A DNA stretch of 32,000 nt from Candidatus Saccharimonadota bacterium (lineage in GTDB: Bacteria; Patescibacteriota; Patescibacteriia; 2-12-FULL-60-25): the NCBI GenBank assembly GCA_016699205.1, contig CP064964.1, positions 210,001 through 242,000 on the forward strand, written 5' to 3'. Positions within the stretch are counted from its first letter, which is position 1. Every line of letters begins with the position of its first letter. Under the pieces are notes generated by a model, which was not told the DNA's origin, did not search any database, and saw only the letters and a list, made by a program, of their open reading frames with translations. Made by a program: the position numbers and the translations under genes. This document shows, one piece after another, positions 2,120 through 13,526 of this stretch.

Positions 2120-5100
2120 CTATTCGCCGCTCCAATCCTTACAAAGCATCTCCGCCTGCTCAAGAACGGTCTTGGTTGCGAGCTCCTGCTTGTCAGGCGG
2201 ATACTGATATTTCCTCAAAAGTTTCTTCACCATTACGCGCAACTTCGCCTGTACATTTGCCTTTAGCGTCCAATCGATAGATGTATTTTTACGGAGCATT
2301 TCTACTAGTTCTTGTGCGATCTTTTTGAGCGTATCATCGCCTAGCTCATTTGCCGCGCTCTCATTTTCATAAAGCGCATCATAAAATGCGATCTCTTCCG
2401 GTGAGAGCTTTAGGTCTACCTCTCTCGCCTGTTCTGCTTTAATCTTTTTGGCGAGTTCGACAAGTTCAGTAATGACTTGCGCTGCTTCGATTGTTTGATT
2501 TTGGTATTTACTAATTGTGTCCTCAAGCATCTTGGAGAATGTGCGCGACTTGACCAGGAACTTCTTCTGCATTGAACGAACCTCGTCGTTTAATAATTTC
2601 TTTAAGAGCTCTAATCCCAAATTCTTGTATTTCAAGTTCTTGACCTCCTCCAAAAATTCATCAGAGAGGACCGAGATATTTGGCGTTTTTAAGCCAGCGG
2701 CTTCAAAAACATTAACTACCTGATCGGAGACCACAGCGTTTGAGACGATTTGCCGAATAGCATGGTCGTAATCTTCTTCTGACGGTCCCCCGCCTCCACC
2801 TGCTTGCTCGAACTTCGCCAGAATCACGCGGACTTTTTGGAAAAATCCAACATCATCACGAATATCTATAGACTCTTTGCTGGGCACGGCTAATGAGAAT
2901 GCAAACGATAAATCTGTTACCGCTTTCAGGTAACGATCTTTCCCCTGCTCTAAACCCAAGATGTAATCCATCGCACCGGACAAGATGCGCATCTTCCCCG
3001 TGGATTTATCCTCAAAATACGAGGAGTAGTCGAAACCGTGATACATCGCTTTCACGATCTCGTATTTTTCCATCATCACAGCAACAGCATCCTCCTGTTG
3101 GACCGTCGGATTCTCACGATCGGTTTCAGCGTATTGAGATAAGGCTTCTTTGAGAGCAGGTGCGATTCCAAGATAATCCACTACTAAGCCTCCTTGCTTG
3201 TCCTTGTAAACACGGTTTACGCGCGCAATAGCCTGCATAAGGCCATGACCCTTCATTGGTTTATCAAGATACATTGTATGCATCGAAGGCGCGTCAAAGC
3301 CGGTCAGCCACATATCGCGAACAATGACGAACTTTAGTTCGTCTTTTGGATCCTTCATTCGTTTGGCGAGGCTCTCGCGTTGTTTTTTGGTGTATAGATG
3401 CTTTCGCCAACTTTCCGGGTCGCTTGGCGAGGTCGTCATCACTATCTTTATAGAACCCCTGTCAAGATCATCGCTATGCCAATTCGGTCGGAGTTTAATG
3501 ATTTCCTCGTAAAGCTCAACCGCAATACGACGACTCATCGCAACGAACATCCCCTTACCATCAATCGCTCCTAGACGAGCTTCAAAATGTTCAACAACAT
3601 CTTTCGCAATAAGACTGAGACGCTTCTCTGAGCCTACCATTGCCTCTAAACGCGCCCACTTGCTCTTTAATTCCTCTTTTCTTGAAGTCTCCTCGCCTTC
3701 TGTTATCTCTTCAAACTCAGGATCGATCTTAGGTTTCTCGGCTTCTGAGAGTTGGATCTGAGCTAAACGCGCCTCGTAGTAGATAGGCACCGTCGCATGA
3801 TCCTGAACCGCTCGGTTAATATCGTAAATATCGACGTACTCGCCAAAGACCGCGCGAGTGTTGGCATCGCGGAGTTCAACAGGTGTGCCAGTAAAACCAA
3901 TGAATGATGCATTTGGCAATGCATCGCGCATGTGGCGAGCGAAACCATCGATAAAGTCGTATTGACTGCGATGCGCTTCATCAGCGATAACGACAATGTT
4001 CCGACGATCAGATAGTGGTCCGGCTCCAAAGGGATTCTCAAAGTTGAATTTCTGAATTGTTGTAAATATCACGCCACCCGCAGCAACGCTTAACAGTCGC
4101 TGAAGATCAGATCGGTCTTGCGCCTGGACTGGTGACTGACGTAGCAGCTCGGAGCAATGCGAGAAAACGCCGAACAGTTGATCGTCGAGATCGTTTCTAT
4201 CCGTGAGAATAACGAGGGTTGGGTTATCCAATACCTGAATAATTTTGCCCGCATAGAATGTCATAGTCAGACTCTTGCCTGATCCCTGCGTATGCCAAAC
4301 CACACCGCAACGGCGATCCCCTGTTTCTGACGTTGCGGCCAATGTGCGTTGAACAGATTTGTTTACTGCATGGTATTGATGATAGCCCGCAAGTTTTTTG
4401 ATCGTGTTCTCCCCGTCCGTCTCAAATACCGTAAAGTTGGTGATAATATCCAGCAACCGTTCCTTGGCGAACATTCCTTTCAAGAGCACTTCCATCTCTG
4501 GAATTGAAGTAGGCGCTACATCGTCACCATCGATTGTTCGCCACTTCATGAAACGTTCAAAATCAGCCGTAAGCGAACCGACTCTTGTATCGATGCCGTC
4601 ACTTATGATGCAGAGGCCGTTATAGGTAAAGAATGATGGAATTTCAGCCTTGTATGTTTGGAGCTGATTGAACGCATGGCGGACTGTCGCGTTTTGGTCT
4701 GCTGGATTTTTGAGTTCAAAAACTGCTAACGGGATACCGTTCACAAAGACAACGACGTCTGGTCGTCGGTTGTGATTATTTTCAATTACGGTGAACTGAT
4801 TTACCGCTAACCAATCATTGTTGGTCAGATCTTCTAAGTCGAAGAGCTTGACCTTATCACCGGCAACCGAACCGTCGTCACGGCGATACTCAACATCAAC
4901 GCCTTCAACCAACATTTTATGTAAAGCGTGGTTGGTCGTTAAAAGACTTGGGCTTGAATAGGCTACGTTGATGACTTTCTTGATCGCTTCCTCTCGAGCG
5001 TCTTGAGGGACACGGGAATTGATTTTAGCGACCACCGAGCGGAGTCGTCCGATCAATAGCACATCCTTATGCGAAAGACGTTCAGGCGCTTCGCCATCGG

Positions 5101-5197
5101 GAGCGATACTTGGACCGAAAACGACACTATAACCAAGCTCCTCGAGCCATTCGAGTGTTGCAATTTCGAGGTCTGATTCGGTGAATTTGGAGGGCAT
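2120..5197 (-). CDS. hsdR: type I restriction enzyme R subunit (helicase/endonuclease)
   Basis: 1025 aa. The N-terminus ([19 protein letters not shown]) is typical of HsdR. SF2 helicase motifs are present: TQGSGKS (Walker A), DEAHRSQ (motif II) and FTGTP. It has a long helical C-terminal domain. Start ATG is at 5197-5195, 2 nt after the upstream stop. Confidence 0.95.
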
Positions 5198-5199
5198 GT

Positions 5200-6624
5200 T
5201 TATGGATTGAGTATAATGCCGATCATCGCTTCGATCGAAGTTCGTAATTCTTGAGGCGAGAAATTAGACTGCTGCATAGACTTGTTTTCGGGATGATGAA
5301 TCTTGTTCCGAATAAATATCTGGAGTGGAACATCCTTCTCTCCTAAAGCCTGTCCGCCCCTTTCTTGGTTCCACTTTTTGGTATTTGTTTGTTGTTTCGT
5401 ATTCAAATAAGCAATCATGTCTGACTCTAGGTATTTTTGCTGCATTTCTTGTATATGTCCATAGAGCTCGTCATGAAATTCAACTGTAGCCAAATTGAAA
5501 GCTAGATAGTTTATTTCATTTGATGAGAAATATGGCAGTGTCGCAGTTGATATTGGCACGAGCTGCGGCGTCCCGCTGTTTTTACGGAGGATTTGTACGA
5601 CTACACTTTTATTGGTCATCAACTGCTTAACAAGTAACGGTGAGTGAGTTGCTAGAACAACTTGTGCGACTTTTGAGAACGCTAATAATATCTCGATAAA
5701 CTTTTCCTGTAGTGAAGGGTGCAGGTGTAATTCAGGTTCATCGATTAGACAGATTAATTGTTTCCCGCTCTGTTGCGAGAGGTAAAAAGCGATAAGAAAT
5801 GAGAAGATCATCTCATATCCAGATCCCAACATACTAAGCGGTACCTGCTGATTATTTGGTTTTTTCACCGCAAGGAACCCTTTGCTAAATGGACGCCAAT
5901 TATCAATTAAGTTCAAGCTGAGCTCATCTCCGCTTATTTCTTTGAATTTAGTGATTGCTTGTTTCAAGAATGCATTCTCTGCCGCGTCCCTAGTTGCGTC
6001 CAGGTGCTCGTGAACATTTGGGACGGAGTTCTCGTCACCAATGTGTTGAAAATCAAAATCCTCCATCAAACGATCAAATCTCGTCGGATTATAAGCTCCT
6101 AATCTCGTTTGAGAGGTACGACCCTTGTCCAAAATAAGCACATCATTTTCATCAAAGCGCCGGCCCTTAAAAGGGTTATTGACGCTCACCCTTAGATCAG
6201 GGCTTCCATCCTTCGGCTTGGCTGGATCAACTTTAATATATTGCTGATCGCTGACTACAATTGATGATAGGTATGCCTTAGTGGCCTTGGAGCGTACGTT
6301 CGCCTTAAATAAAAATCCATTTGCATTAAACTCGCCTTTTGGCATCGTGCCTGTGACTGAAAATTGCTCCCTTGATAGGAGCTTGATCTCAGCTTCTTTG
6401 GTAGGGTCATTAAAATCCTGAACGTCAAAGCTATCTGCTTTATAAGAAACTATCGGAAGCGCAATAGCTTCTAGTAAAGCCGATTTGCCACACCCATTCT
6501 CCCCGACGAAGACAGTTAATCCGCTACCATCATTCTGACCATCGGGTGCGTTCAGCTCAATCTGAAAATCGGTTTGAGCTGAAAATAATCGAAAATTTTT
6601 TATTTTTACAGTCTTGATGAACAT
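5200..6624 (-). CDS. ABC/SMC-type (OLD/RecF-like) ATPase with a C-terminal RNxxxH (HEPN-like) region
   Basis: 474 aa. ATPase motifs: Walker A GENGCGKS, signature-like LGSGYEM, Walker [16 protein letters not shown]-loop ATHSP. There is no Toprim DxD. The C-terminal ~110 aa contain [11 protein letters not shown]. The gene lies between hsdS and hsdR. Confidence 0.85.
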
Positions 6625-6655
6625 AATGCGATATTTACGGCTCTAGAGCTTCGGG

Positions 6656-7102
6656 TCAGCCCTGCTTGCTCAGCTTATTCACAATCTTTTGGTTGAGCGC
6701 TACTTTCTTTTTCGTCTGCTTATCACTCAATACTCTCTTTCTCTGGATATCAAAATAGAAGTCTCGTTCCCATTGATTGATCCATGATTTATTATACGCG
6801 AATTCAATCGTTTCTTTGTTAAACGATTTATCAATATCCTTTTTTACCTTGGCAATAGATCTAAAAATCTTGTCTGATTTATCGATAAACTTCTTTACAC
6901 AGCAATTACCTACTCGAGCTACGCTACTCGTCTTAATATTTCTTATGAGGCAGATCTCGATGATCGGAAAATGGCCGCACATGCAGGTTTCCGGTTCATC
7001 AGCACGAACAACATTATCAAGGTCCCACTCCTGTTGAGCTTCAGCCCACTTCTGTGACTGACTCAATTTTAGCAACTCGGTGATAAGTCTATATTCAGAC
7101 AT
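6656..7102 (-). CDS. small Cys-cluster (putative zinc-ribbon) protein of unknown function
   Basis: 148 aa. It has C-x-C-G-H ... G-N-C-C (TCMCGHFPIIEICLIRN...VGNCCVKKF) and a Lys-rich C-terminus. ATG is at 7102-7100, 6 nt after the hsdS stop. Very AT-rich. Confidence 0.7.
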   Translation of the reverse strand: MSEYRLITELLKLSQSQKWAEAQQEWDLDNVVRADEPETCMCGHFPIIEICLIRNIKTSSVARVGNCCVKKFIDKSDKIFRSIAKVKKDIDKSFNKETIEFAYNKSWINQWERDFYFDIQRKRVLSDKQTKKKVALNQKIVNKLSKQG

Positions 7103-7108
7103 ATCAAA

Positions 7109-8326
7109 TCAAATCGCCCTTATTCTCCCGCTCATTAAACGCGGTAAAAGAGAATCGCGGATGGCCGACACCGTAGACATCTCCTGCTCATTACAAGATA
7201 TCGCTTGTCTGATACCTGAACACACTCCACTGAACTTCTCCAAGACATGAGCATTCGGAACAATGACCTCAACGCCATACGCCTGGTCTCGGTTCAATCC
7301 CGGAACAACTGAATCCCCGTTCACAAAAGATTGCTGTTTCAAAAGATAGTAGCAGTAAACAAGTGGAAATCTTGATTCCACATAATACGTAGTGTCAATT
7401 GGGTAAAAGTCTCCGTCCACCCAGAAAACACTACCTACATTCCCCTTTCTGCCAAGAACTATGCCGGGTCCATCAACAAGCTTCATGTTATGCGTGCCCA
7501 CATAGCCGCTGGATCCGTAAACTTTTATTACTCCCTCTGAGCGATCTTCGGCCTTAAGTGCCTTTCCATAATGTAATTTTAATACATTGCCAAGACTCTC
7601 GATTTTCCACCCTTCTGGCACCTCCCCTATCTCCGTCTCCACCATCTTCCCTCCACTCGATTTATAAGACCTCCCCTCCTCATCCGGAAACTCAAAATCT
7701 ACAAACCAACGCTTGAACAACGTACTTGCCATCTTTTCAAGGTTGGTGTTGATCTGTCGGTTGAGTTCGATTTTGTCGTCGAGAGAGGAGAGAATGGAGG
7801 CAATGCGGTGCTGTTCTGACGCTGTTGGCAAGGGAAGTAGAATCGTTTTGACTTTTTCTCGCGACAATTCCGTCTGGCCCGTGCTTCCCTCAGCGAACGA
7901 TTCGATCAGGGGCTGTATATTGCGGAGAAAATATCCGACAAAGACTGGATCAATCTCGCGATGATCCGGTCTTACAATTGTTAAGTGAGAATCAGCTGTT
8001 GTTTTTTGAAGTAGCTGTTTCACCTGACCAACTCTTCCCAGAGTGCCCTGACCAGTCGAATTGATAAGCACGTCGAATGGCTCCAGGTACTTATTCGATG
8101 GAATTTTTTGGGCTACTGGATCGGTGAGGCGCGCTTCTTCAAATCCCACTCTCCCATCTCTCACGCATTTTTGATTTAAGACGACGACGTCACTTTTTTC
8201 CGTATAACTCGGAGTCACACCCCTCGAAATAAAGCTTGTTACTTTCTCCAAATTCACAACCTCCCATTCTTCCGGAATGAGTCCGATCTCGGTTTCTTTA
8301 AAGTTTTGGGTATCCAAAATTTTCAT
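7109..8326 (-). CDS. hsdS: type I restriction-modification specificity subunit
   Basis: Two target-recognition domains are separated by the conserved central helix (ILSSLDDKIELNRQINTNLEKMASTLFKRWFVDFEFP), followed by the C-terminal conserved helix (IRDSLLPRLMSGRIR). I prefer the ATG at 8326 (MKILDTQNFKETEIGLIPEEWEV). The track start at 8377 is a TTG that overlaps the upstream gene. Confidence 0.9.
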   Translation of the reverse strand: MKILDTQNFKETEIGLIPEEWEVVNLEKVTSFISRGVTPSYTEKSDVVVLNQKCVRDGRVGFEEARLTDPVAQKIPSNKYLEPFDVLINSTGQGTLGRVGQVKQLLQKTTADSHLTIVRPDHREIDPVFVGYFLRNIQPLIESFAEGSTGQTELSREKVKTILLPLPTASEQHRIASILSSLDDKIELNRQINTNLEKMASTLFKRWFVDFEFPDEEGRSYKSSGGKMVETEIGEVPEGWKIESLGNVLKLHYGKALKAEDRSEGVIKVYGSSGYVGTHNMKLVDGPGIVLGRKGNVGSVFWVDGDFYPIDTTYYVESRFPLVYCYYLLKQQSFVNGDSVVPGLNRDQAYGVEVIVPNAHVLEKFSGVCSGIRQAISCNEQEMSTVSAIRDSLLPRLMSGRIRAI

Positions 8327-8333
8327 AGGATGC

Positions 8334-9047
8334 TTAGAATCCAATTCGTTGGAAAACGGAGAATACTCTGTAAGCAAGGTATGCGAAAAGTATCTTTACC
8401 ATATGCCATAAATATGGGAACGGATTTCCTGTCTTTAAAGTGATAAAAGTGTTTGGAAGTGTCCACCAAAGATTTATCAGCTTCTGGCTCCTTATTTGGC
8501 CTTTGTCATCGAACAATACCTCGTTGACATCCTTGAAAGTCAAAGTAAAATCGTGCTTGGGCAACGTGAATATGGAGCCGGCTTGTGCGGGCTTACGAGC
8601 CCGAACAAGGTCGTAAACGTGACTGCCAGTTAGACAGACACTAAATTTAATTATCAAATGCTTTCCTTCTTTTGGCTCGAAGAGTATGGGCAAAGACAGC
8701 TTCTTTTCGTTATCTGCAGCGGTAAAAATTTCCGCGCCCATCCCTTCAGCTAAAGTTCTCGTTCTTTTTTTGTTGCCCCAAATTACATAAAAGATCTCTG
8801 TGATCGAGTTTTGCTCGTTACTTTGATTTTTCACGTAGCCGTCAAATGCAATGTCGTAAAAATCTAGACCGTTTCTAGTTTTTACGCTACCAGCGGAGCC
8901 ACGGAAATCGAACTTAAATTTTGAACGCTTTTTTATTTGCTCTTTCAACGTAAATAGTAAAGAAATGAATCCTGCGATTGATCCTGAATCCAAAAGGATT
9001 CGTCCCCAACCATATCCTGCCAGGATATCTAATGTGCTAGACACCAT
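8334..9047 (-). CDS. hypothetical protein with N- and C-terminal hydrophobic segments
   Basis: 237 aa with ATG at 9047-9045. It has an N-terminal hydrophobic stretch (ILLDSGSIAGFISLLFTL), a beta-looking middle, and a C-terminal hydrophobic/aromatic segment (YLWHMVKILFAYLAYRVFSVF). No family recognised. It lies between an hsdS 5' remnant and the intact hsdS. Confidence 0.65.
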   Translation of the reverse strand: MVSSTLDILAGYGWGRILLDSGSIAGFISLLFTLKEQIKKRSKFKFDFRGSAGSVKTRNGLDFYDIAFDGYVKNQSNEQNSITEIFYVIWGNKKRTRTLAEGMGAEIFTAADNEKKLSLPILFEPKEGKHLIIKFSVCLTGSHVYDLVRARKPAQAGSIFTLPKHDFTLTFKDVNEVLFDDKGQIRSQKLINLWWTLPNTFITLKTGNPFPYLWHMVKILFAYLAYRVFSVFQRIGF

Positions 9048-9060
9048 AGAGTTTGATGCG

Positions 9061-9168
9061 CTAATTCAAATCTTTTGCCTGTGCAAATAACTCCAACTTC
9101 AACACTCTCCATTCTTCCGGAATAAGTCCGATATCAGTTTCTTTGAATTTTGTTTTCTGGGTTTTCAT
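9061..9168 (-). pseudogene. hsdS 5' remnant (35 codons plus stop)
   Basis: The minus-strand translation is MKTQKTKFKETDIGLIPEEWRVLKLELFAQAKDLN*. It parallels the intact HsdS N-terminus MKILDTQNFKETEIGLIPEEWEVVNLEKV. By-eye DNA identity is roughly 80% over about 57 nt (9093-9150 versus 8252-8308). Confidence 0.75.
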
Positions 9169-9239
9169 GTAATCTTGCGAGTACTTTCACGTCTTGACCT
9201 GTGGATATTTTCTTGTTATATTCTATTTGTAGTGAGTAA

Positions 9240-9872
9240 TCACTGCGATTCACGCGGTCCCGCTCTCAAGGCGGGATTTTCGCTTTTTGGAGGATCGCTG
9301 CGTTTATATAACTTACCAATATCGATGAATGCGTCCGCTATGCGGAATAATTCACGGGACACGGTACCACGAGCACCTACGACGTAGATCTTTCTTCCCC
9401 TGAGCTTGAGACGTTCCAGCGGTGCGTAAAAATCCGAATCGCCCGAGAAAATCATAAATCCGGAAGCTCGATCAGCGTCGTCCATGAGGTCCATCGTCAT
9501 CTCAACGTCAAAATTGCATTTGGGTTCTTCGATGAGTGTGCCGGCGGATTGAACGGACTCCACAACACTTTTCATGAGTGTGGTCGTTCCAAGGTCTAAT
9601 TGGTTCAATGTCATCTTTTTAAAAAAGATCCCCAAGTCTACCGTTTTGCGAATGAACTTAACGGGCTTTGTACGTAGAATGGCACCAGCTTCCATGACAT
9701 CACTGTTAAATGCTTCTGATTGTGATAGCGATCGTTCATTCGTTCCGTAGTACGCCTTTACTTCTCGAACATTTTGCAACGCTCTTAGCTGTTCCACGAG
9801 ACGAACGACACGGACCTTCCACCCGAGCCTCTTTTGCCAACCAATAATATTAGCCACGTCTAAATAAGCCAT
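9240..9872 (-). CDS. NYN-domain (LabA/DUF88-like, PIN-fold) putative ribonuclease
   Basis: The motifs AYLDVANI, CNFDVEMTMDLMD and MIFSGDSDFYAPLERLKLRGRKIYVVG match the NYN acidic-residue pattern. The ATG at 9872-9870 overlaps the hsdM stop as TAATG. An alternative ATG at 9896 would add 8 aa. Confidence 0.85.
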   Translation of the reverse strand: MAYLDVANIIGWQKRLGWKVRVVRLVEQLRALQNVREVKAYYGTNERSLSQSEAFNSDVMEAGAILRTKPVKFIRKTVDLGIFFKKMTLNQLDLGTTTLMKSVVESVQSAGTLIEEPKCNFDVEMTMDLMDDADRASGFMIFSGDSDFYAPLERLKLRGRKIYVVGARGTVSRELFRIADAFIDIGKLYKRSDPPKSENPALRAGPRESQ

Positions 9873-11332
9873 TATGGCTGTTTCTTTTTCAAGCATTGAG
9901 CGCCAGTCAGAGCTCCCACATATCGGCCTGGGGTCAGGACAAAGCCGTTCTTCTCCACCTCAGAGATCTTGGCCGCCTTGGAGAAACCTTTAACATCAGT
10001 ATAGGTGCAATCTTTCTTTCTCCAGCAATGATATGCTTCGGAAATCTTCTCGATGTCTTCAGCCGTAAGCTCGCGGTTCTTACGACTGACCATGGTCCCC
10101 ATTTTACGAGCGTCGATAAACAGAATTTCATCGTGACGATCACGAAACTTGTGATTATGGCGGTCACGCGAGACGAACCAGAGACAAACAGGGATCTGTG
10201 TCGTGTAAAAAAGCTGTGTCGGCATCGCAACAATACAATCGACCAGACCGTTCTTAATTAAATTCTTTCGAATTTCCCCTTCTCCGGAGGAATTAGACGA
10301 GAGCGAACCGTTAGCCAACACAAAACCAGCGATGCCTGCAGGCGAAAGATGATGAACCATGTGCTGGATCCAGCCATAGTTCGCATTTCCAGCAGGAGGA
10401 ACGCCGTATTTCCATCGGACATCATCTTTCAAACGCTCCCCTCCCCAATCGCTAATGTTGAACGGTGGATTTGCGAGAATGTAATCAGCCTTCAAATCTT
10501 TATGAAGATCGTTGTGAAATGTGTCGGCGTGATGGGGGCCCAGATTTCCGTCGATTCCACGGATAGCAAGGTTCATCTTACAAAGTCGCCAGGTTGTTGG
10601 GTTTGATTCTTGCCCATAAACCGAAATGTCATGCTTGTTACCGCCATGAGCTTCGACGAATTTCTCACTCTGAACAAACATGCCACCACTACCACAGCAG
10701 GGATCGTAAATGCGTCCCTTGTAAGGCTCTAGCATCTGAACGAGAAGCTTCACTACGCATTGCGGAGTGAAAAATTCCCCACCTCCTTTGCCCTCGGCGG
10801 AAGCAAAGCGACCCAAAAAATATTCATAGACCCGTCCCAGAATATCTTTGCTGCGACTCTCCTTGTCTCCAAGACCAATCCCGCTAACCAGATCGATCAA
10901 TTCTCCCAATCTCACCTTGTCGAGATCAGGACGCGCATAGTTCTTGGCTAGCACTCCTTTTAAGCTCGTATTGTCTTTCTCAATCGCAATCATCGCATCA
11001 TCAACCAATTTTCCAATCTCGGCTTTCTTTGCATTGTCTTTAAGGAATTGCCATCGTGCATCAGAAGGCACCCAAAAGACATCTTCAGCGAGATAGGCGT
11101 CCTTATCCTCTTCTTGACCTTCGTAATAATCCTTGTCTTTAAGGATACCTTGATACACCTCGTCAAAGGAGTCGGAAATATATTTTAAAAAAATTAAACC
11201 GAGTACAACGTGCTTGTACTCGGAAGGATCCATGTTGTTGCGCATCTTATCGGCAGCAGCCCAAAGCTTTTCTTCAAAGCCGATATTTGCTCCGGAATTC
11301 TTTATGCTTTTTTTAGCCATAATCATAGACAT
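9872..11332 (-). CDS. hsdM: type I restriction-modification N6-adenine DNA methyltransferase subunit
   Basis: It has an HsdM N-terminal domain ([40 protein letters not shown]), the SAM motif DPCCGSGGM and the catalytic NPPF. Possible starts are ATG 11332, 11326 or 11320. Confidence 0.95.
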
Positions 11333-11374
11333 TATCCCTTCCCCGCCTCCACTTTACAAGCTACCCTTCCCCTC

Positions 11375-12118
11375 ATGCCCTCCCTCCTCCATTTAGGTTC
11401 CAAACGCGGCTTCCGCGATCACGACTGGCTCCAAACCGCCCACTCTTTTAGCTTCGGTAACTACTGGGACCCCAGCAAAATGGGCTTCGGCCTTTTGCGT
11501 GTCTTGAATGACGATACGATTCAAGGCGGCGTCGAGTACGAGGTTGGGAATGATAAACCGCAGCGATTAGGTTTTGGACTGCATCCGCATCGCGATATGG
11601 AGATTGTGACCATTCCCCTGTCGGGCCGAATCGAGCATAAGGATAACTTTGGCCATCACGGCATTATCGGTCCTGGCGATGTACAGGTCATGAGTGCGGG
11701 AACGGGAATTACGCACTCGGAATTTAATGCGTCGGAGACGGAGCCGGTATCTTTGATTCAGCTTTGGGTTGAGACGGATGCGCTCGATCATGAGCCGCGT
11801 TACGAGGATCGAACGTTTCCTAAGGCCGAGCGTAACGCGTGGCAGCTGCTCGTCTCCCCTGACGGACGCGAGGGGTCGCTTTGGATTCATCAGCAAGCCT
11901 TTTTCAATCTTGGCGAATTTGATGCGGATCAATCAACGAAATACGTACTGCGTGATGCCAAGCACGGCGTTTATGTTTTTGTGATCGAGGGCGAAGTTGA
12001 AGTCGATGGCAATACGCTTGGTAAACGCGATGCGATCGGGATTTGGGGCGAGAAGGAAATCGAACTCAAAATCAAACAGGACTCGAAAGTCCTGTTGATT
12101 GAGGTGCCGATGAGCTAG
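11375..12118 (+). CDS. pirin-family cupin protein
   Basis: Starts at ATG 11375 (MPSLLHLGSKRGFRDHDWLQTAHSFSFGNYWDP...). Contains HPHRDMEIVT and VQVMSAGTGITHSEFN. The track ORF start at 11210 would overlap hsdM and adds non-homologous sequence. Confidence 0.85.
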   Translation: MPSLLHLGSKRGFRDHDWLQTAHSFSFGNYWDPSKMGFGLLRVLNDDTIQGGVEYEVGNDKPQRLGFGLHPHRDMEIVTIPLSGRIEHKDNFGHHGIIGPGDVQVMSAGTGITHSEFNASETEPVSLIQLWVETDALDHEPRYEDRTFPKAERNAWQLLVSPDGREGSLWIHQQAFFNLGEFDADQSTKYVLRDAKHGVYVFVIEGEVEVDGNTLGKRDAIGIWGEKEIELKIKQDSKVLLIEVPMS

Positions 12119-12119
12119 T

Positions 12120-12602
12120 TTATTTGACCGGGCCAAACATGTAGACGTTCAACGACTTTAATCCGGTAAGTACGAGCGACTCTTCATCCGCTCCAACGGC
12201 CATTCCATCGGACAAATCCGCGGCAAAAGCCGACTCCACCTCCCCTGGCAAACCTTCACAGAACATCAGCGTGGAAACAACTTGCGGGGCCGAGAGCTTA
12301 CCATCGCTGATCGTGTAGCCGCCGCTCATGTTGTTACAAATTTTGGCTGCAAGATCGCCATCTTTACCAAGTCGGAGCGTAAAATTTAATGCTGAAAGAT
12401 CCTGCTGCTTTTCTCCTTGTGCAGGCTTTTTGAATAGCATCATCTTCCATGTCCCTTGTCCGACCGTGGATGTCGTTGGTTGCGTGGGTTTGACTTGCGT
12501 ACCGTCACCATATCCTGGAATCGGTGCGTTATTGGAAGGAAAGGAACAACCAGCTCCCAAGAGAGAAACAACCGCCAACAATCCGAGAGCGCGCTTATAC
12601 AT
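12120..12602 (-). CDS. META-domain (HslJ-like) lipoprotein
   Basis: Signal peptide plus lipobox (LLGAGCS). META-type core (KICNNMSGGYTISDGKLS...MFCEGLPGEVESAF). Confidence 0.8.
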   Translation of the reverse strand: MYKRALGLLAVVSLLGAGCSFPSNNAPIPGYGDGTQVKPTQPTTSTVGQGTWKMMLFKKPAQGEKQQDLSALNFTLRLGKDGDLAAKICNNMSGGYTISDGKLSAPQVVSTLMFCEGLPGEVESAFAADLSDGMAVGADEESLVLTGLKSLNVYMFGPVK

Positions 12603-12625
12603 AGGGAAGAGAACGGATTAAACGA

Positions 12626-13111
12626 TTAGTACATCTTGCCGTCCTCCGTGCCGGAAGCGCCGTCGCGCTCAAAAACGAAGACCGCTGCCCCTTGCATCAC
12701 GAGATTCTCGCCTTGTTTTGAAATGGTGTAGTTGGTCGTGAAACCGGATGTAAAGGCACTCTCAACTTCTCCAGGCAAACCTTCGCAGAACATCTTGGTT
12801 TGCATGACGGCGCCAAACTTCACCAAATTATCCTCGACGGTGTACGGTCCATTCATCGTGTTACAAATCTTTCCATTCATCTTTTCACCATCAAATTTGG
12901 CCGTGAGCCCCAATGCAGAGACGTCTCGCGCCTGTCCGCCGACCATCTGAATCGATTTCATCTTCCAAGAACCGGTCATAAACTGACCCATCGACATCTT
13001 GCCTTCAGGAGCAGCCGGCTTTTCAGCGTTCGGCATTGGCGATGGGGTTGAAGCGGCACAGCCGGCGCCCATGAGCGCGACCATCGAGACGGCGATGAGA
13101 AGTTTTTTCAT
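12626..13111 (-). CDS. META-domain (HslJ-like) lipoprotein, paralog of 12120..12602
   Basis: ATG at 13111 (MKKLLIAVSMVALMGAGCAAS, lipobox). Core KICNTMNGPYTVEDNLVKF...MFCEGLPGEVESAF. The longer track start at 13147 would overlap the HIT gene. Confidence 0.8.
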   Translation of the reverse strand: MKKLLIAVSMVALMGAGCAASTPSPMPNAEKPAAPEGKMSMGQFMTGSWKMKSIQMVGGQARDVSALGLTAKFDGEKMNGKICNTMNGPYTVEDNLVKFGAVMQTKMFCEGLPGEVESAFTSGFTTNYTISKQGENLVMQGAAVFVFERDGASGTEDGKMY

Positions 13112-13121
13112 ATGTGGAGGA

Positions 13122-13526
13122 TTATAGCACTTGGCGAATTTTCTCACCGATCTGCTTTAGCGATTCTTGATCTTCCGATTTTCCATGCCAGAGCTGATAA
13201 CCATCGTCAGCAAAACGCGGGATGACGTGGAAATGAAGATGGAAGACTTTTTGCCCGGCTGCCTCGCCATTGTTTTGGTGGAGGTTGATGCCATCGGCGC
13301 CTGTCGCCTCTTTCACGGCTTTGGCGACTTTTTGCACGGCCTTGATGACGTGAGCGAGAATCTCCGGATCCGTATCGAGCAAATTCTCTGACCAAACTTT
13401 TGGCACAACAAGCGTGTGGCCGAGATGCACCGGGGTAATGTCGAGAAAGGCAAAAGCGTAGTCGTCTTCATAAACTTTCTCGCAAGGAATTTCTCCGGCA
13501 ATGATTTTTGAAAAAATAGTTTCCAT
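13122..13526 (-). CDS. HIT-family (histidine triad) nucleotide hydrolase
   Basis: 134 aa. N-terminal FSKIIAGEIPCEKVYEDD and the histidine triad HLHFHVIPR. Confidence 0.9.
   Translation of the reverse strand: METIFSKIIAGEIPCEKVYEDDYAFAFLDITPVHLGHTLVVPKVWSENLLDTDPEILAHVIKAVQKVAKAVKEATGADGINLHQNNGEAAGQKVFHLHFHVIPRFADDGYQLWHGKSEDQESLKQIGEKIRQVL

Follow-up and report, generated by a model that had tools for sequence, protein, structure and literature searches.

The block of eight open reading frames (ORFs) on the minus strand between positions 2120 and 11332 of the window (the whole stretch of 32,000 nucleotides analysed here, positions 210,001 to 242,000 of contig CP064964.1 from a Candidatus Saccharimonadota bacterium) is probably a horizontally acquired type I restriction-modification (R-M) operon that independently mobile genes have used as a landing site, which would make it a miniature defence island and not one system. 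It is an instance of the known tendency of type I operons, and especially of the hsdS-hsdR junction, to gather independent defence-type genes. Four of the eight genes are not hsd genes and are referred to here as cargo. Two of these, encoding an ABC ATPase of 474 amino acids (aa) and a 148-aa protein (p148), belong to families that are recurrently embedded in multi-gene defence systems and are, as far as libraries and literature show, not yet described. No such recurrent nesting was found for the other two, a NYN gene and the gene for a 237-aa protein (p237). The features of the block, in minus-strand gene order, are listed below, with lengths in nucleotides (nt) where these are not in aa.

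9872..11332, minus strand: hsdM, truncated at its 3' end, 486 aa; HsdM_N and N6_Mtase domains complete, C-terminal tail absent
9240..9872, minus strand: gene for a putative NYN/LabA-like RNase of 210 aa (start ATG at 9872), in the place of the lost hsdM 3' end
9061..9168, minus strand: remnant of an hsdS 5' end, 35 codons (MKTQKTKFKETDIGLIPEEWRV...)
9091..9151, no strand assigned: upstream copy of a 61-nt direct repeat, within the remnant, 82% identical to 8246-8306
8334..9047, minus strand: p237, an orphan protein with moderately hydrophobic N- and C-terminal segments
8246..8306, no strand assigned: second copy of this 61-nt repeat, on the downstream side, within the 5' end of hsdS
7109..8326, minus strand: hsdS, intact, 405 aa (start ATG at 8326); two target-recognition domains
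6656..7102, minus strand: p148, with a putative zinc site of the form CxCGH...C...GNCC and, after it, a basic and helical C-terminal half
5200..6624, minus strand: ABC ATPase, 474 aa, with an AAA_15/AAA_21 head joined to a domain of some 110 aa at the C-terminus, encoded by nt 5203 to about 5545
2120..5197, minus strand: hsdR, full length, 1025 aa, with HSDR_N, SWI2_SNF2, T1R_D3-like and T1RH-like_C domains

ORF calling placed all eight genes where an earlier, sequence-only reading of this DNA had mapped them, and the tight junctions that it described are present: hsdM and the NYN gene overlap at TAATG, and the other tight junctions are gaps of 6, 31 and 2 nt. Three more gaps measure 71 nt (NYN gene to hsdS remnant), 13 nt (remnant to p237 gene) and 7 nt (p237 gene to the hsdS ATG at 8326). 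All of the genes are co-directional and it is plausible that the block is one transcription unit. There is a clear purine-rich, Shine-Dalgarno-like stretch at 11333-11354, upstream of hsdM (GGAGGCGGGGAAGGG), and no obvious Shine-Dalgarno sequence at the starts of the seven genes downstream of it. Scans for promoters and terminators returned counts near the shuffled expectation and were uninformative. The block is AT-richer than its surroundings, as had been proposed, with a GC content of 0.447 against 0.539 and 0.526 in the flanks; within it the hsd genes are at 0.46-0.47, and three of the cargo genes lie below this (ATPase 0.415, p148 gene 0.389, p237 gene 0.406).

That this is a type I R-M operon carrying non-hsd genes is borne out by Pfam and PADLOC matches for all three Hsd proteins. 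HsdM matches PF12161 (1.9e-27) and PF02384 (6e-111) in Pfam and MTase_I (5e-227) in PADLOC. HsdS has PF01420 (Methylase_S) in two stretches and matches Specificity_I (6e-104) over residues 92-420, and in the case of HsdR the PADLOC REase_I match spans residues 4-1021 against a profile of 1029 positions, with a TIGR00348 score of 633 bits against a cut-off of 284.

The reading of the block as an assembly of independent genes comes from the separate distributions of the four cargo families. Other loci compared are given L-numbers, and homologous proteins P-numbers. At least three divergent type I lineages have the p148 gene inside their hsd operons (loci L048, L108-L115, L119, L120 and L127), and the homologs concerned include the subclade closest to the window's p148. 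The gene orders, with M, S and R for hsdM, hsdS and hsdR, are as follows.

L108: M-111aa-S-p148-R
L110-L112: M-Fic-S-SduA_C-p148-R
L113-L115: M-S-277aa-p148-UvrD-R
L048: R-M-248aa-ATPase-p148-S
L119, L120 and L127: M(690 aa)-p148-S-R, a distant type I family

The slot occupied by p148 varies, being S-p148-R, M-p148-S or ATPase-p148-S. The nearest hsd relatives of the window, L108 and L113 (HsdM 83% and HsdR 72-76% identical), have p148 alone of the four cargo genes. The fact that these close relatives carry p148 without the other three indicates that p148 has long resided in this hsd lineage. In the remaining three cargo genes the window and these two loci differ, through gain here or loss there. 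That p148 recurs in three lineages of type I systems suggests that it is functionally tied to their enzymes.

The ATPase is distributed differently. Genes like hsdM, hsdS or hsdR lie within 5 kb of it in 17 of the 81 other ATPase loci and, among loci with at least 5 kb of sequence on both sides, in 8 of 38; the corresponding figure for control loci is 0 of 26. These counts were made by tblastn with the window's own Hsd proteins and are a lower bound, for which the 26 control loci are the baseline. Typically the ORFs abut or overlap in the order hsdM-hsdS-ATPase-hsdR (L021, L031, L054, L075, L077). This position between hsdS and hsdR is the slot of prrC, so that the Escherichia coli prr locus, named as a precedent by the sequence-only reading, holds up for the ATPase, which recurs there in diverse type I operons. 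Between loci, the identity of the ATPases and that of the HsdR proteins are incongruent, which would suggest, on sequence comparison, that the ATPase has been captured repeatedly and independently by type I operons. No neighbours other than hsdM, hsdS and hsdR recur beside it among the 81 loci. Indeed about 80% of family members have no hsd neighbour, and the ATPase must therefore be able to act alone; it is solitary in L001 and L002, and many copies stand alone in islands. It is a self-contained module, often but not necessarily inside type I operons. In L002 (Ekhidna; 7908-9809) a second, longer AAA_15/AAA_21 ATPase of 633 aa adjoins the ATPase homolog in divergent orientation; downstream of them come a gene for a resolvase and one of 2013 aa that weakly matches NPHP3_N, an NTPase-type domain.

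The association of cargo homologs with hsd operons thus extends to the ATPase and p148 and not to the remaining two. The NYN gene is a secure domain call (PF01936, E 7e-18, 65.9 bits against a cut-off of 24.2; PADLOC NYN 3e-09 and, weakly, HEC-09 8e-05), and its DVAN, FDVEMTMD and SGDSDF motifs appear to hold the conserved acidic residues of NYN/PIN-like proteins. Its closest homolog, in L100 and 80% identical, has a PBP2 gene on one side and aminoacyl-tRNA synthetase genes on the other, with mreBC also near, and hsd genes were found beside NYN homologs in 0 of 8 related loci. The two hydrophobic segments noticed earlier in p237 are present at its two ends and are only moderately hydrophobic, with Kyte-Doolittle maxima of 1.5 and 1.25. 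There is no match to p237 in Pfam, PADLOC, NCBIfam or PHROGs and the family is rare, with 19 proteins found; homologs in three independent contexts adjoin serine recombinases or a NACHT gene, and never hsd genes.

Two scars mark the hsd genes. Homology of HsdM to its relatives ends near 9915 and is followed by 13 unrelated codons to a stop that overlaps the NYN start. In L108 and L113 HsdM runs on for 51 residues past GRYVG (...FEEKMTKVTAELSDQFKQSKILEERISKNLKSIGFEIK), and this tail of about 51 aa, which is also present in the aligned proteins of L054, L021, L031 and L077, is absent here; no trace of it was found in other frames anywhere in the window. In type I enzymes the HsdM tail packs against conserved helices of HsdS in a four-helix bundle, and its deletion abolished M-S assembly in PacII (PMC9613975). 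Given that the tail is lost here and is required in PacII, the R-M enzyme of this locus may be crippled or disabled. This truncation was overlooked in the sequence-only reading and puts R-M activity in doubt. The second scar is the 35-codon hsdS remnant, which that reading had recognised and which is corroborated by a weak PADLOC Specificity_I match (E 7e-5) and by the 61-nt repeat shared with the intact hsdS, to the 5' end of which the remnant is identical at 33 of 36 nt. The p237 gene is bracketed by both copies of the repeat, and this suggests that it entered through recombination between hsdS 5' regions.

The ATPase has intact Walker A (GENGCGKS), signature, Walker B/D-loop and H-loop motifs. 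It matches AAA_15, AAA_21, AAA_23, SMC_N and DUF2813 in Pfam and has 1090 homologous matches, many of them 50-76% identical over the full length. The nearest solved relatives of the head in the PDB are OLD (6p74), PtuA, AriA and GajA, and in PADLOC it matches AriA (1.5e-30). In the C-terminal domain the family alignment has the invariant motifs SxNExN, TxExHxE and RNxIHH. The RNxxxH tail noticed earlier is RNKIHH, with R439, H443 and H444 invariant in 22 homologs. A profile search with this domain found 1034 clusters at 50% identity, nearly all with the domain at the C-terminus of AAA_15 ATPases of 450-550 aa, which is essentially the only architecture in which it occurs; none of 10 distant members scanned has a Pfam annotation over it.

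The AlphaFold2 (AF2) model of the C-terminal domain has a predicted local distance difference test score (pLDDT) of 90.9 and a topology of helix-helix-insert-helix-helix, the insert being a helix and a beta-hairpin. The stretch from R100 to H105 closes the third core helix, and the second holds E43, H45 and E47. In the model, the placement of RNKIHH and the helix topology appear to match the published description of HEPN domains (PMC3710099), from which we infer that the domain may be a HEPN-like RNase, on motif and topology only and with profile and fold searches empty. Of the two RNase-type effectors that had been proposed for this locus, the NYN protein therefore stands as a domain call, and the ATPase tail at the level of motif and topology. 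DARNA (PD-T7-3) was considered as a relative of the tail and rejected, since its HEPN domain is N-terminal and it has no ATPase.

In the case of p148, 502 homologs were found. The Cys cluster described earlier is confirmed in their alignment, in which four residues never vary (C40, C42, C51 and C68) and H44 and C67 rarely do, and the AF2 model is confident (pLDDT 91.3). We take p148 to be a putative zinc-binding, and probably nucleic-acid-binding, protein. No match was found in Pfam, NCBIfam or PADLOC, by Foldseek against the PDB, by PDB profile search, or by tblastn against the phage collection. In PHROGs there is a weak match (E 5e-4) of residues 10-78, which include the Cys motif, to phrog_7174, a phage family of unknown function. 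A match to HTH_3 in Pfam at E <= 10 was set aside as spurious, as it lies in a C-terminal extension of one homolog (P0161, residues 137-165). The 235-aa genes recurring beside p148 were suspected to be p237 homologs, and alignment shows no relationship.

Distant p148 homologs are solitary, in Vibrio integron-like cassette arrays, Burkholderia and Janthinobacterium islands, plasmids and viral contigs. In Vibrio parahaemolyticus (L003-L006) they are single genes in long arrays of small, evenly spaced genes on the same strand, with acetyltransferase, HIT, NUDIX and SUKH neighbours, and these arrays resemble superintegron cassettes; the homolog in L006 adjoins a SIR2-HerA pair. Homologs are present on 85 plasmids, of which 75 are predicted to be conjugative, and many of the listed records are from Providencia or Proteus. 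The plasmid of L098 (NZ_MW864328.1) types as IncT, and Rts1 (NC_003905.1) is among the matches. On a Rhizobium plasmid (L099) the homolog is beside a pair of genes for an ATP-binding protein and a Shedu nuclease. In IMG/VR contigs (L123, L128, L137, L121) it adjoins genes for a primase-polymerase (AEP-TOTE, Prim-Pol), a DnaB-like helicase or Fic, and in L129-L136 the homologous region is part of a longer ORF of 268 aa. A 59%-identical homolog in L116 (4607-7564) lies outside hsd operons and is followed, 22 nt on, by a small gene with a faint HNH match, with an unrelated NYN-domain gene about 2 kb downstream.

Under the favoured explanation, the order of events can be reconstructed from L108 and L113 as follows. 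The p148 gene would be an old resident of the hsd lineage, placed between hsdS and hsdR. The ABC ATPase would have been inserted later between p148 and hsdR, the NYN gene would have replaced the hsdM 3' end, and p237 would have arrived together with the duplication of the hsdS 5' end. The ATPase head would most likely be a sensor and switch, as in PrrC/RloC and in the OLD/PtuA/AriA class, and the fused C-terminal domain, with its HEPN-like topology and Rx4H motif, would be a toxic nuclease, probably an RNase, released on infection or on inhibition of restriction. The NYN and p237 genes would be opportunistic insertions.

A number of points weigh against this explanation. Gene content, distributions, scars and motifs were observed, while activities, co-transcription and the order and direction of the insertions are inferred from them, and the direction of change, gain here as opposed to loss in the relatives, comes from two close relatives only. 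The hsd counts for the ATPase depend on the window's own Hsd proteins as queries and on the control loci as baseline. Every database test of the HEPN assignment failed: a PDB profile search of the C-terminal domain returned no match; Pfam at E <= 10 gave nothing beyond one HEPN_Apea match (E 0.14) in 1 of 17 members; and Foldseek against the PDB and BFVD gave no match below E 0.07. The invariant constellation of E, H, E, H and H could instead be a metal site. Finally, p148 and the ATPase are adjacent twice, in the window and in L048, which leaves room for a functional pairing.

Such a pairing would make p148 and the ATPase a two-gene module, with p148 as partner, antitoxin or specificity factor after the manner of AriA/AriB or PtuA/PtuB. 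In its favour, two hsd operons that are unrelated, those of the window and L048, have the pair side by side, in opposite gene order; a partner is the norm for related ABC ATPases; and elsewhere p148 is found beside nuclease- or helicase-type genes (SduA_C, UvrD, the faint HNH match). However, p148 is missing from 79 of the 81 other ATPase loci, the ATPase is missing from most p148 loci, and in L108 p148 is the sole cargo between hsdS and hsdR, so that we consider the module quite unlikely. The gene pair located between hsdS and hsdR that the RptR paper describes as a 'putative RNA-binding protein + AAA-like ATPase' was considered as a p148 and ATPase pair and was not adopted. The sequence-only reading had gone further and proposed the operon with all four cargo genes as a candidate composite system. 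In such a single system the R-M complex would hold two RNase effectors, the NYN protein and the ATPase tail, latent, with the two small proteins as adaptors and all of the genes co-expressed and interdependent. The co-directional genes with their tight junctions, the clear Shine-Dalgarno sequence at hsdM only, the prr precedent and the p148-ATPase adjacency in L048 are all in keeping with this. Against it, no other examined locus has more than two of the four cargo genes, L108 and L113 have one, and NYN and p237 have no hsd association elsewhere; and the arrival of the NYN gene destroyed the hsdM tail, which resembles damage and not design. The single composite system is largely refuted by these distributions and must be regarded as very improbable.

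That damage could also be taken as a sign that the whole locus is a decaying, non-functional R-M remnant, in which the cargo consists of neutral insertions without a defence role. The HsdM lacks the C-terminal tail whose deletion abolishes assembly in PacII, the hsdS fragment and the 61-nt duplication persist, the nearest NYN homolog lies among housekeeping genes, and HEC-09, the nearest NYN candidate, gave no defence when tested. Yet all other ORFs are intact and of full length, including the 1025-aa hsdR, and the ATPase and p148 here keep every residue that is invariant in their families. The strong conservation of the two families and their recurrent embedding argue for selection, and general decay is unlikely as an explanation.

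Among known systems the E. coli prr locus (EcoprrI hsdMSR with PrrC), with RloC, is similar in that an ABC-type ATPase is fused to a small C-terminal domain with an Rx4-6H motif and in that the ATPase gene is co-directional with, tightly spaced to and placed between hsdS and hsdR, the order in the window being hsdS-p148-ATPase-hsdR. It differs in the head, which here is of the AAA_15/AAA_21 (OLD/PtuA/AriA) type with no match at E <= 0.01 to the Pfam model AAA_13 (PF13166), which we take to be the one covering PrrC and RloC. It also differs in that the C-terminal domain here matches no HEPN profile or structure and in that most of the family is not linked to hsd genes. OLD, Septu (PtuA/PtuB), PARIS (AriA/AriB) and Gabija (GajA) have the closest ATPase domains by sequence and share the logic of an ATPase with a nuclease, since TOPRIM or HNH nucleases accompany each of these ATPases as a domain or as a partner; the trigger of PARIS is an anti-restriction protein. 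Here, in contrast, TOPRIM, DUF4435 and HNH are absent both as domains and as partner genes, and the scores are far below the family cut-offs. The AriA models give only 105 bits, a generic, AAA_15-like match, with no TOPRIM or DUF4435 gene in the block or recurring beside homologs; and for Septu, NF041760 PtuA gives 60.9 bits against a cut-off of 500, with no HNH gene in the block.

The sequence-only reading did not recognise the combination of genes at this locus as a described system, and this is true of the combination; the phenomenon of genes embedded in type I operons has been reported (10.1101/2024.01.29.577857, a preprint; PMC11411939; PMC12255303). Precedents include PrrC, the rlo genes of Campylobacter, TgvAB of V. 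cholerae, DarTG2 of enteropathogenic E. coli (EPEC) and the cases of 'guilt-by-embedding' (Payne et al. 2024 preprint). The last of these are similar to the present locus in having independent defence-type genes between hsd genes, especially hsdS and hsdR, co-oriented with the operon. They differ in that none of the four cargo proteins here is in a PADLOC v2 HEC or PDC family and, as regards embedded genes generally, in that one insertion here also damaged hsdM. HEC-09, an Hma-embedded NYN candidate, resembles the NYN gene in its putative RNase domain and in being embedded in a multi-gene defence operon. It differs in that the match (E 8e-5, 20 bits) is confined to residues 128-195 against positions 105-176 of a 203-position profile, about 70 residues of the NYN core, that its N-terminal eIF2B/5-like domain was not detected in the window's NYN protein, and that the closest homolog of the latter is in a housekeeping context; HEC-09 gave no defence in published assays.

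Defence genes embedded in type I operons are already known, so that the locus, taken as a whole, is one more example. Its yield is a pair of conserved families with no domain model in Pfam and no entry in NCBIfam or PADLOC v2: an ATPase family of about 1,000 clusters at 50% identity, repeatedly in the prrC position, with a confidently modelled and unmatched C-terminal domain, and a family of zinc-motif proteins, p148, of about 500 homologs, embedded in several type I lineages. Both could extend the PrrC paradigm of a second line behind restriction to new proteins. In addition, L108 and L113 set against the window offer a clean before-and-after comparison of the entry of cargo into an hsd operon and the damage that can result. 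A more speculative reading, to which we would give a low probability, is that p148, more than a passenger, is devoted to modulating type I R-M enzymes, for instance as a factor for establishment or restriction alleviation or as a sensor of anti-restriction proteins, and that in parallel the ATPase family is a widespread, unrecognised single-protein abortive-infection nuclease that has repeatedly taken the prrC slot. Such a role for p148 would fit its occurrence both in hsd operons, in differing slots and in at least three lineages, and alone on conjugative plasmids, among integron-like cassettes and within replication modules of viral or mobile-element contigs, which are places where one would look for anti-restriction functions.

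In its chromosomal setting the block is flanked by a gene for a Band 7 protein on one side and by pirin, two META-domain and HIT protein genes on the other, and those upstream of hsdM are ordinary chromosomal neighbours.

11210-13526 of the window, hsdM upstream region: a pirin-like gene (plus strand); two tandem META-domain genes and a HIT-family gene (minus strand)

No integrase or tRNA gene that would mark an island boundary was found in the flanks, and scans for tRNA and Rfam families gave no matches. Megablast of the block DNA gave no match to E. coli genomes and a single 140-nt match to plasmids, which was judged irrelevant.

The genes embedded in related type I operons change from locus to locus (L108 5438-5773; L110 3627-4736 and 5915-6997; L113 2630-3334, 6151-6984 and 7449-9005; L054 6632-8860). 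They encode a 111-aa hydrophobic protein, Fic, a Shedu-like SduA_C nuclease, AbiEii, a 277-aa unknown protein and a UvrD-like helicase, and in the type I operon of L054 there are four small embedded ORFs.

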